Shown here: positions 13,863 to 38,818 of the stretch, one piece after another
How positions within the stretch are numbered: position 1 is the first letter of the stretch
Layout of the letters: every line of letters starts with the position of its first letter
DNA from: Mytilus trossulus
Taxonomy: Eukaryota
DNA: 64,000 nt
Assembly: GCF_036588685.1 (NCBI RefSeq)
Contig: NC_086384.1
Span: forward strand, 44,330,001 to 44,394,000
Direction of reading: 5' to 3'
Position numbers and translations under genes: made by a program
The notes under the pieces: model-generated
Seen by the model: only the letters and a program-made list of their open reading frames with translations
Told to the model about the DNA's origin: nothing
The model's database searches: none

Positions 13863-14318
13863 TTTTTATGCCCCAACTACGATTGTAGTGGGGCATTATG
13901 TTTTCTTGTCTGTGCGTCTGTTCGTCCGTCCGTTCATTCGTTCGTCTGTCCCGCTTCAGGTAAAAGTGTTTGGTCAAGGTAGTTTTTGAGGAAGCTGCAG
14001 TCAAATCAACTTGAAACTGAATACACATGTGCCTTATTATATGATCTTTCTAGTTTTAAAGCCAAATTAAACTTTTGACCACAATTTCACGGTCCACTGA
14101 ACATAGAAAATGAAAGTGCGAATTTCAGGTTAAAGGTTTTGGTCAAGGTAGTTTTTGATGAAGTCCAATCGACTTGAAACTTAGTACACATTTTCCCTAT
14201 GATATAATCTTTCTAATTTTAATGCCAAATTAGAGATTTTCTCCCATTTCACGGTCCACTGAACATAGAAAATGATAGTGTTGATGGGGCATCCCTGTAC
14301 TGGGGACATATTCTTGTT
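13863..14318 (+). mobile_element. HINE-like element (atgcccca...ggggcat subterminal IR family)
   Basis: ttttatgccccaactacg...gtagtggggcatt hairpin, (GTCC/GTTC) microsatellite, about 168-bp internal repeat, ends ggggcatcc...cttgtt. A second copy lies at 52806-55593. Confidence 0.7.
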
Positions 14319-20249: not shown

Positions 20250-20899
20250 TTCTTACATACTTATGATTTTTTTAACCCTGTATGCTAACATTGCCAATGT
20301 TAATTTTAAAACTGTTTGAATGCTCATTGAACGACAAATCTATTTGACGTATAAAATTTTCTGACGTCAGACTCAAAAATCAATGTATGTGTTTGTAGTT
20401 AGATGTTTTTGTGTTTTGTTAAATTGTTCCTTTTAAAATTGTTATACGATGATGACTGATGTACCATATGTTGACAATTTTATTTATTGTGTCTGTTTAG
20501 TTAACGCATCAATGTAAATATAACGGAATTTGATGAGACTGTCATCAAAGAGAGAGAGGGTTAGTGCTTTAAAACAAGGTTCAATCCACCATTTTCTACA
20601 TTTGAAAATGTCTGTACCAAGTCAGGAATATGACAGTTCTTGTCCATTCGTTTTTGATATATTTTGTTATTTGATTTTGCCATGTGATTATGGACTTTCC
20701 TAATTGATTTTCCTCTGAGTTCAGTATTTTTGTGATTTTACTTTTTTCTACATTTGAAAATGCCTGTATCAAGTCAGGAATGTGACAGTTCTTGTCCATT
20801 CGTTTTTTATGCGTTTTATTTTTTGATTTTCGAATGTGATTATGAACTTTCCGAATTGATTTTCCTCTAAGTTCAGTATTCTTGTGATTTTACTTTTTT
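20250..20899 (+). repeat. Abundant 'tgtaccaagtcagg' repeat with a tandemly duplicated ~151-bp tail
   Basis: 20596-20746 is repeated at 20747-20899. Related fragments lie near 170, 16585, 23150 and, reversed, at 28500. Confidence 0.7.
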
Positions 20900-33904: not shown

Positions 33905-35730
33905 CAACATATGAATATCCAAAGACAAACATGGATGCACAAACCGTAGCCAAAATTCTTGTCGAGGAAGTAATTGCTCGATTCGGTTCACCATATTCAA
34001 TACACTCTGATGAAGGAGTGCAATTTAAAAGTGTCCATTTTCAAGAGCTCTGTAAGCTCTTACAAATCAATAAAACACGAACCACTCCCTTCCATCTAAA
34101 ATCGGACGGAATGGTTGAAGATTTAACAAAACGTGATTTACTATGCTCAACTTATATGTTAACAAATACCAAAATGATTGGGACGAACATTTTCATTATG
34201 TTCTCAAGGCGTACAGATCTTCAGAACAGGAGACTACAGGCAATACCCCAAATTATCTAATGTCAGTTAGGTTGGAGACAACGCCTTTAGATATTCAGTA
34301 TACAATGCTAAGAAATATTGCAACTATTACCCAGAACAAATGGGCGTGGGAGATAAAAGAGAGAATGGAAGAGGCACATTCGGAAGTAAGAGAAAAATAG
34401 CAAAGGGAATATGATGAGACAAAAGAAATATCATGATCAAAGTTATCATGGCAAACCTTTAAACAAGGGGATCAAGTTTTTGTGTTTTTTACAAAAGTAA
34501 CAAGAGTGCACACGCTGAAATGTCTCGCCTTCTTTACTAATCATTGATAGTATGTTGATAGACCTAAATATAAAGCTTTATTACATCTGTCACATAAACT
34601 CAAAATAAACCAAGAAAACAAAACATTGATCAATGAACCATGAAAATGAGGTCAAGGTCAGATGAACCATGCCAGGCAGACATGTACAGCTAACAATTCT
34701 TCAATACAAAATATAGTTGTCTTATTGCTTATAAATTAAGAAAAACAGACCAAAACACAAACACTTAACACTAAGCAATGGACCATGAAAATGAGGTCAA
34801 GGTCAAATAAAACCTGCGTAACAGACATATAGATCATAAAATATTTCCATACACCAAATAAAGTTGACCTAATGTATAAAGTATTTGAAAAATAGACCAA
34901 ACTCAAAAACTTAACTTTGACCACTAAACCATGAAAATGAGGTCAAGGTCAGATGACACCTGTCAGTTAGATATGTACACTTTACAATCATTCCATACAC
35001 CAAATATAGAAGACCTATTGCAAAAAATATAAGAAAAACAGACTAAAACACAAAAACTTAACTATAACCACTGAACCAAGAAAATGGGGTCAAGGTCAAA
35101 TGACACCTGCCAGTTGGACATGTACACCTTACAGTCCTTCCATACACCGAATATACTAGCCCTATTGTTTATAGTATCTGAGATATGGACTTGACCACCA
35201 AAACTTAACCTTGTTCACTGATCTATGAAATGAGGTCGAGGTCAAGTGAAAATCGTCTGACGGGCATGAGGACCTTGCAAGGTATGCACATACCAAATAT
35301 AGTTATCCAATCACTTATAATAAGAGAGAAATTAACATTACAAACATCTTAACTTTTTTCAAGTAGTCACTGAACCATGAAAATGAGATCAAGGACATTT
35401 GACATGTGACTGACGGAAAGTTCGTAACATGAGGCATCTATATACAAAGTATGAAGCATACAGGTCTTCTAACTTCTAAAATATAAAGCTTTTAAGAAGT
35501 TAACTAACGCCGCCGCCGTAGCCGCCATAGCCGGGTCACTATCCCTATGTCGAGCTTTCTGCAACAAAAGTTGTAGGCTCGACAAAAACTGGCACAACGT
35601 CAAAATTAACCAGTTAATAGAGAGGACAGTTTAAGGTTAATCAAAAATGTGAGATGTCACATGTATACGAGGTTAATTGTGGGCGACAAAAACGTCCACA
35701 AGTTAAACATGTGGATCGCATACGTAGCGA
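33905..35730 (+). mobile_element. Decayed Ty3/Gypsy integrase region, interrupted by a HINE-like element
   Basis: AQTVAKILVEEVIARFGSP..IHSDEG..F, RTTPFH..SDGMVE, DWDEH...VL.AYR, and after the insertion SKLTS..RGQFKV...VKHVDRIR (GPY/F region). Multiple frameshifts. Confidence 0.85.
34499..35588 (-). mobile_element. Helentron-associated element with six ~147-bp tandem units
   Basis: aacaagagtg... left end, units accatgaaaatgaggtcaaggtc at about 34636, 34781, 34927, 35074, 35221 and 35373, (GCC)n microsatellite, gtcgagc...gctcgacaaaaa terminal hairpin. Inserted in an A-run of the integrase with no clear TSD. Confidence 0.75.
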
Positions 35731-38348: not shown

Positions 38349-38704
38349 TGTAACCGGAGAGCACGTATCTACTCTACAAATTCCTATCGTCACCACCGGG
38401 ATTCGAACCCCGGTCGTCTGCGTGACAGTCAGTGCGTTTTTTTTTATCTTTATTATAATCAAACTTCGTATTTACATATCACAGTTCATAATTACACATC
38501 AATGAAAACAATATTATCAATTACTGTCCTTTCTCTGAAAAGAAACATTCAATATTCTACTTTTACAATTCAAATGCGTGAAATATTTTTCACGATACAG
38601 TCAGTGCGTTAATCCACTAAGCCAAAGAATCGATTCCCTAGCTCAGTTGATTAAGACTGGCTATATATGTTCTACCTGTACTAAGGGGAAGCAACCCCGC
38701 TACA
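38349..38704 (-). mobile_element. Short solo LTR (about 184 bp) containing a tRNA-Asp-derived Pol III cassette (Helenus/TRIMp3-like)
   Basis: TGTAACCGG...CCCGCTACA termini and 4-bp flanks ATAT/CTAT. Minus strand has TATATA, A-box TGGCTTAGTGG (38614-24), anticodon loop CTGTCAC and B-box GGTTCGAATCC (38399-409). Confidence 0.6.
38437..38596 (-). mobile_element. 5'-truncated polyA retroposon (L1/Tx1-type 3' end) inserted in the tRNA-like sequence
   Basis: Direct repeats ACAGTCAGTGCG(TT) at 38425 and 38597. Minus-strand AATAAA followed by an A9 tail. Confidence 0.75.
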
Positions 38705-38818
38705 CTATTCCCCCACCACAAGAGTCATCATACAAGTTACAGCGAGGTAATCATTTGATAGTTATAGATTATGAAAATGAATCTTCACTTTTTCATGTTT
38801 TTAATTGTATAAACATAC

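Follow-up and report, generated by a model that had tools for sequence, protein, structure and literature searches.

Why should a polyA-tailed retroposon come to lie inside a mobile element that imitates a tRNA gene? This question is raised by a unit that runs on the minus strand from a TGT at 38704 to an ACA at 38349 of the 64-kb stretch of Mytilus trossulus DNA analysed here (the window, positions 1 to 64,000), as read from the sequence. Wherever a protein match in the analysis carried a species name, that name was Mytilus, in keeping with a mussel source. A preliminary description of the locus had taken the unit for a tRNA-like LTR, and had proposed that a tRNA-specific retrotransposon uses it as a decoy or safe harbour. 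We considered in turn the host unit, the insert, the family to which the insert belongs, and the places where that family and its relatives land.

When the insert and one copy of its target site duplication (TSD) are removed, 356 − 160 − 12 = 184 bp remain. The reconstructed TGT..ACA unit is thus as long as had been described, and uninterrupted natural Helenus-3 LTRs are also 184 bp. Its assignment as the LTR of a Helenus-type TRIM holds as well, the window LTR being near-identical to the published Helenus-3_MyGa-LTR (Kojima 2024 supplement, PMC10886601). The 5' portion (38597-38704, minus strand) contains the TGT end, a TATA-like element (TATATA, 38662-38667), an A-box-like motif of a tRNA-derived promoter (38614-38624) and the 5' copy of the TSD; TATATA and A box had both been correctly noted. 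The 3' junction register of the retroposon comes just after the A box, as in the tRNA cases below. The 3' portion (38349-38436, minus strand) contains an anticodon-like loop, a B box (38399-38409) and the ACA end, and tRNA-derived A and B boxes are carried by the Helenus LTR. The sequence resembles tRNA-Asp, yet ARAGORN recognises no tRNA either in the window or in any of the 8 Helenus loci tested.

Immediately upstream of the TGT, the 28 bp at 38705-38732 (minus strand) match the end of Helenus-3_MyGa-I, including its polypurine tract (PPT), and fall within an alignment (97% over 136 bp) to a complete natural copy, positions 265-400. Since these 28 bp are the end of the internal region, the unit in the window is the 3' LTR of a truncated element. 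The flanking tetranucleotides, ATAG and ATAT, had been proposed as a 4-bp TSD; they are not one, because one side is the PPT, and a solo LTR with a 4-bp TSD is ruled out on the same ground. A search of the 64-kb window and the next ~6 kb did not find the 5' part of the truncated copy. From these alignments we identify the host unit as the 3' LTR of a 5'-truncated copy of Helenus-3_MyGa, a tRNA-derived TRIM that has already been published; Helenus-3 itself is already known. The window copy differs from Helenus-3_MyGa (PMC10886601) in being 5'-truncated and interrupted, whereas the 184-bp LTR, the ~108-bp internal region, the PPT and, in other copies, the 4-bp TSDs are common to both. Neither 'Tx1' nor 'nested' occurs in the available main text of Kojima 2024 (PMC10886601).

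An LTR half used as query gave 244 candidates in the same genome, of which 40 were scored, many as pairs 292 bp apart. LTRs were paired in 15 of the 22 distinct Helenus copies read, and perfect 4-bp TSDs were found in all 15 of these (19/22 overall), as expected if the unit is an LTR. Most paired-LTR copies span ~476 bp, with a short internal region (element under 1 kb). Elsewhere in the window, tandem units of 147-163 bp occur at 13955-14280, 20592-20899 and 34615-35249; we take these to be, probably, internal repeats of common mussel transposons.

The insert itself occupies 38437-38596 (minus strand, 160 bp), runs in the same sense as the tRNA-like part, contains AATAAA and ends in AATAAAGAT followed by nine A, all of which agrees with the preliminary description. 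It is flanked by an upstream (38597-38608) and a downstream (38425-38436) copy of a 12-bp TSD on the minus strand, or 14 bp when 38609-38610 are counted, a figure that includes two A merging with the tail. The far end of the duplication falls inside the GTC anticodon, as had been stated. The insert is 95.6% identical to positions 1597-1756, the final 160 nt, of a full 1.76-kb copy that sits in a tRNA-Leu gene (L064) with a TSD of 13-15 bp, and hence we regard it as the 5'-truncated 3' end of a ~1.75-kb single-ORF polyA retroposon, family A. As a genome query it returned 144 candidates, 40 of them scored; it folds no better than its shuffles (z −0.48). Longer copies had been expected to encode a Tx1/L1-type APE-RT. 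No RT is encoded in the longer copies of this family, which carry a single orphan ORF instead, and this rules out the insert as the tail of an RT-coding LINE.

Full copies of the retroposon measure 1.5-1.8 kb and have a common 5' start motif, one ORF of about 280-325 aa, an A-tail and TSDs. Two of the ORF proteins (P0001, P0002) have no Pfam match above cut-off, and across 41 ORF members Pfam finds no family common to more than 1 and no transposase. There was no usable Atlas match. The protein is predicted to consist of two ordered domains joined by a disordered linker; a search with the model gave Foldseek E values above 0.3 and VIA Z scores of at most 4.5 for the whole model and at most 3.4 for the N-domain alone, so that the fold searches indicate neither a new nor a known fold. 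Between subfamilies within a lineage, dN/dS is 0.05-0.12 for the N-domain, mostly 0.3-0.7 for the C-domain and 0.6-1.1 for the linker; between the deepest lineages the measure is saturated. By these substitution ratios, the N-domain is under purifying selection. A profile search with the ORF recovered 88 clusters at 50% identity, the longest ≤364 aa. Of 20 such relatives looked up, one was from Mytilus and the other 19 were on contigs of about 1.1-3.2 kb.

HAL1, the 'half-L1' that Bao and Jurka are said to have described in 2010, is reportedly protein-coding, RT-less, polyA-tailed and LINE-dependent, and carries a LINE ORF1. The mussel element resembles it in being protein-coding, RT-less and polyA-tailed, but its ORF has no detected homology to the ORF1s of co-resident LINEs: the family profile against five of these ORF1s gave a best E of 9. 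It is therefore not a half-LINE of those LINEs, which argues against a HAL1 origin of the orphan ORF. Neither is it a SINE, with a length of 1.5-1.8 kb, an intact ORF under selection and no tRNA head after the TSD. In the literature searched, no passenger ORF like this one is described.

Relatives of the ORF differ in where they reside. Those ~50% identical in the N-domain are dispersed, with TSDs of 12-16 bp and no tRNA in their loci by Rfam, and the most distant lineage (~20% identical) targets tRNA and shares the final ~168 nt at 80%. Because distant members are dispersed and the most divergent one is tRNA-linked with a common 3' end, targeting appears to follow the 3' end better than the ORF, although the tree flags long branches. 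The dispersed N-domain relatives also weaken the case for the orphan ORF as targeting factor. The protein would likely aid its own RNP and would be unlikely to set the target alone. The dispersed single-ORF relatives were seen at L250-L257 and L262-L266, several with 12-16 bp TSDs and long A-tails, unlinked to tRNA genes.

The preferred targets emerge from the tail. A 23-nt tail pattern has 65 exact matches in its own genome, compared to none for the reversed control, and all 65 were read. Forty-nine are in tRNA genes, four in 5S genes, four in tRNA-derived repeats and eight in other DNA, where Rfam finds no tRNA. The four in tRNA-derived repeats, one of which is the window insert, have a B box 27-32 nt on. 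Fully 20 anticodon types and 15 amino acids are represented among the 49 tRNA-gene insertions, and real tRNA-Asp(GTC) accounts for one of them, which rules out specificity for tRNA-Asp or for its anticodon. Nor do most copies of family A sit in tRNA-Asp-like sequence, as had been expected: its 15 copies are divided among tRNA genes (10, of Thr, Lys, Leu, Met and Pro), tRNA-derived repeats (3) and other sites (2). Targeting is isotype-blind, neither Asp- nor anticodon-specific. As array duplicates inflate these counts, we collapsed them, obtaining 30 distinct family-by-target pairs. A protein-based search adds a Ser and an Asn-type tRNA target in the same register, in which several SINE-like repeats have also been entered.

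Position within the gene is nearly constant. For 46 of the 49 tRNA cases the junction is at the A right after the D-loop GG; off-register are one Thr copy (+2 nt) and two His copies, representing one duplicated event (−12 nt). All 57 copies in tRNA genes, 5S genes or tRNA-like repeats are in sense orientation. In 5S, the insertion site is at +27/28, and three different families use it. TSD lengths fall mostly between 9 and 20 bp, and at some 5' junctions 28-45 bp of the gene are repeated. Across copies the TSD is anchored at the base that follows the D-loop GG and its anticodon-side end varies, so 'hit in the anticodon arm', as the window site had been characterised, names the variable end. 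Off-target sites often end in TAA, CTA or GAA.

At L261 (G000:C9:15439718-15467673), ~15 head-to-tail single-ORF copies with a period of ~1879 bp alternate with a 3' portion of tRNA-Leu(CAG); here the junction falls ~2 nt ahead of the usual register. tRNA-Met(CAT) genes at L065, L089 and L197 have an intron-like insert after the anticodon, and one of the 5' junctions there repeats the gene through this insert to the acceptor stem.

Looser patterns are less informative. A 19-nt tail, with 384 matches versus 36 in the control, lacks diagnostic value: among 41 junctions in 40 loci, taken from the first listed, four were in tRNA genes and three in tRNA-like repeats, as scored by eye. None of 28 U6 matches read was interrupted by the tail, a comparison of low power. 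In public contigs, the element is present in DNA runs of three organisms, and one loose end has a tRNA-Thr-type flank. One public RNA run contains two short element pieces only, which does not demonstrate expression. No relative turned up in a metagenome scan.

Intact two-ORF LINEs (L066, L117, L132, L133) also occur in the arrays entered by the retroposon, at the same sites as the single-ORF elements. Their ORF2 (1301-1320 aa) contains RVT_1, Exo_endo_phos and zf-RVT by Pfam and is closest among PDB structures to human L1 ORF2p (E 2.7e-85, versus 6.7e-19 for R2); ORF1 has CCHC-like knuckles, as identified by eye. With ORF1 and ORF2, a polyA tail and TSDs, these elements belong to the L1 group. 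PDB chain LTX, which we take to carry the Tx1L loop, outscores plain L1 endonucleases (85 versus 69 bits). Membership of the Tx1 clade is likely. Some oyster Tx1 entries in Repbase are, we assume, annotated as tRNA-targeting and may be close relatives of the mussel LINEs.

The last 35-42 nt of the insert are matched at 88-91% by L117, L132 and L133, and over only 28 nt by L066. With LINEs at the same sites and a common tail, the suggestion that the insert derives from a tRNA-targeting retrotransposon system with APE-RT partners is borne out. A 9-nt tail, however, is common to families with other targets, and this would weaken any assignment of the LINE that mobilises family A. One LINE family has copies in genes for Val, Gly and Thr. 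A second, also found in His, has a copy in tRNA-Lys(TTT) and a copy in 5S that are 99.8% identical over 480 nt, and these two sites are unlike in sequence.

Is Helenus, then, a refuge? A search for polyA junctions in Helenus found three places, compared to one in the control. The three LTRs entered (in the window, at C5:61602266 and at C3:55469024) belong to two Helenus families and are hit at the same base, the latter two containing ~20-nt remnants of the same tail type, one of them in a Helenus-1-type LTR with a TSD of 13-14 bp. Such repeated entry is what one would expect of a co-evolved decoy or safe harbour, with a retroposon kept by, or specialised on, a tRNA-mimicking LTR, and section 15 of PMC4494074, in the portion available, describes Tx1 families with a preference for transposons, among them LTR elements. 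But just one of the 15 family-A copies, and one of the 65 tail matches, is in Helenus, and all three inserts are tiny fragments (160 bp or about 20 bp), unable to propagate. Among Helenus-3 sites, two are interrupted versus 162 uninterrupted (~1%); in nine loci of one Thr/Gly tRNA array, by a rough count, there are 12 junctions beside about 95 intact-looking units, or roughly 11%. Hits that are so few, and only dead fragments, point to a bystander rather than a refuge. We conclude that Helenus is likely a collateral bystander with a tRNA-type promoter. Repeated entry of Helenus thus stands, whereas the decoy reading is largely refuted, and we hold it the least probable of those considered.

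The combination of polyA, variable TSDs and 5' truncation implies target-primed reverse transcription, which is established LINE biology. The template strand would be nicked opposite the conserved A, and its T would pair with the polyA and prime reverse transcription. Mobilisation may be provided in trans by L1/Tx1-type LINEs through the common 3' end. Tethering to TFIIIC/TFIIIB or to initiating Pol III, as suggested by position, could put the nick some 27-33 nt downstream of the start site: ~+27 in 5S and ~+21 of the mature tRNA plus a short leader (~10 nt, a value from a review of yeast and amoeba elements) lie at a similar distance from it. Because the Helenus LTR carries a tRNA-type promoter, it would occasionally be entered too. 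Insertion would inactivate the gene by pushing the A and B boxes apart, a loss that tandem arrays might tolerate. On balance we think it probable that the insert is a clipped RT-less polyA retroposon, likely LINE-mobilised in trans, at a site likely set by the Pol III complex, with Helenus an occasional target. In favour of such tethering are the single register of nearly all tRNA cases, the three families at the 5S site, the 99.8% identical tRNA-Lys/5S pair, the Helenus and SINE-like copies in register, and the precedent of TRE5-A described below; against it are the 8/65 copies outside any Pol III gene and the off-register His and Thr copies.

The chief competitor is that the LINE endonuclease reads DNA directly, through a relaxed A-box motif in tRNA genes and similar sequences, with a further motif accepted in 5S; the same is assumed of other Tx1-clade elements. 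The tRNA sites share A-box sequence, and a relaxed endonuclease could therefore explain them. A G-rich stretch recurs in the 20 tRNA-type sites, with an invariant A immediately ahead of the junction; precision to one base is what a nuclease would give; copies elsewhere have the recurrent ends given above; and for old Helenus and SINE copies no transcription need be assumed. Available text of PMC4494074 also has target choice mainly set by the endonuclease. Yet flanks vary widely among isotypes, and the 5S site is unlike the tRNA sites even though three families are found there, including one whose copy is 99.8% identical to a copy in a tRNA gene. In an ungapped matrix built from the 20 tRNA-type sites, the 5S site does not rise above background (its score is reached by 29-59% of window positions), and better A-box-like positions within 5S go unused. 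The matrix also misjudges some true tRNA-type sites (leave-one-out minimum −20.5; window site −10.2); being ungapped and poor on true sites, it weakens the 5S contrast, which is suggestive only. We consider direct reading unlikely, and the Pol III tether is favoured over it. Further down in probability, and doubtful indeed, is the idea that the state of the DNA sets the site, with the endonuclease nicking a template strand unwound or distorted by initiating or paused Pol III, so that every active Pol III gene would be cut about equally far from its start. This view accounts for the same positions, for the uniformly sense orientation and for the long 5' duplications (28-45 bp) seen now and then, but no U6 copy was entered among the 28 matches read (low power), although U6 is Pol III-transcribed. 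Animal U6 uses an external promoter.

Extending the preferred reading, tethering to Pol III complexes, we offer a broader proposal tentatively, as one that may well be wrong. A mussel LINE lineage would be tethered to the TFIIIC-dependent Pol III complex and cut tRNA, 5S and tRNA-derived promoters at a fixed position; its rider would be an undescribed class of non-autonomous retroposon, with its own conserved two-domain protein unrelated to LINE ORF1 or ORF2, that changes partner and target by exchange of 3' tails.

How do these elements compare with known systems? In the available text of PMC4494074 and PMC3706591, target-specific LINEs of the Tx1 clade include Keno (U2), Mutsu (5S), Dewa (tRNA-Leu spacer) and Tx1-Mar, and the targets known for Tx1 elements are U2, 5S, microsatellites, the tRNA-Leu spacer and transposons. 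The mussel LINEs resemble those accounts in having an APE-RT ORF2 that includes zf-RVT, an ORF1 that bears CCHC-like knuckles, polyA, TSDs of some 10-20 bp, multicopy RNA-gene or transposon targets, and non-autonomous followers (SINEU). In contrast, Tx1 families as described there have one target kind each, and single mussel families use many tRNA isotypes plus 5S. A bivalve survey, in the part available, lists 14 L1-Tx1 Repbase entries for oyster and names no targets for them there (PMC10294476), and RLE elements target single tRNA types according to accessible portions of PMC4640811. Animal target-specific LINEs are generally explained by sequence recognition by the endonuclease, and the review, as far as available, names only yeasts and social amoebae as hosts of Pol III-guided targeting. 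Available sections of PMC5911963 describe Dictyostelium TRE5-A as targeting tRNA and 5S genes, with an ORF1 that binds TFIIIB, and place the Pol III-guided tRNA and 5S targeting of TRE5-A and Ty elements outside the gene. Like TRE5-A and TRE3, the mussel LINEs are non-LTR elements of the L1 group whose insertions are placed with reference to Pol III genes, both tRNA and 5S. TREs, however, insert 40-54 bp upstream or 40-150 bp downstream, sparing the gene (PMC5911963, same sections), whereas the mussel elements, related to Pol III genes here by position, lie within the gene at a single base; the genome of this animal measures 1.3 Gb. Dada DNA transposons do enter the body of tRNA and 5S genes, frequently at the A box; they have a DDE transposase, a 6-7 bp TSD, no polyA, and family-specific tRNA targets recognised by sequence (available text of PMC3706591 and PMC8869645). 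The polyA tail, TSDs of mostly 9-20 bp and lack of a Pfam transposase match exclude Dada here. Isotype-blind intragenic targeting of tRNA and 5S genes was not found reported in the literature searched, which lay outside Repbase and most subscription papers.

With a single family on unlike tRNA and 5S sites, and with intact elements available, host-factor tethering can be tested directly in an animal. The orphan protein of the RT-less elements has an N-domain conserved across deep lineages, and such a passenger gene is absent from the literature searched. The insertions also flag Helenus LTRs and SINEs as sites that Pol III likely recognises and, as they break tRNA genes in arrays, they matter for tRNA annotation.

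Several other features were noted among the loci read. At L130:3091-3134 (minus strand) there is a type I hammerhead ribozyme match barely above the Rfam gathering score. At L075 (G000:C442:13500-23499), a ~2.4-kb repeat carries 5S genes and histone H1-like ORFs in alternation. A U6 snRNA array of ~26 copies (G000:C10:26478938-26510871; L164, L165, L166) includes two copies split at nt 15-18 by a ~4.2-kb TIR element with a 4-bp duplication, and one cut at nt 70, the Dada-U6 site given in the available text of PMC3706591. Finally, at L178, L183, L184, L188, L191, L195, L196, L208, L209 and L214, an abundant polyA family with a related tail occupies one site of a different, non-tRNA repeat, in what looks like a second target-specific system.
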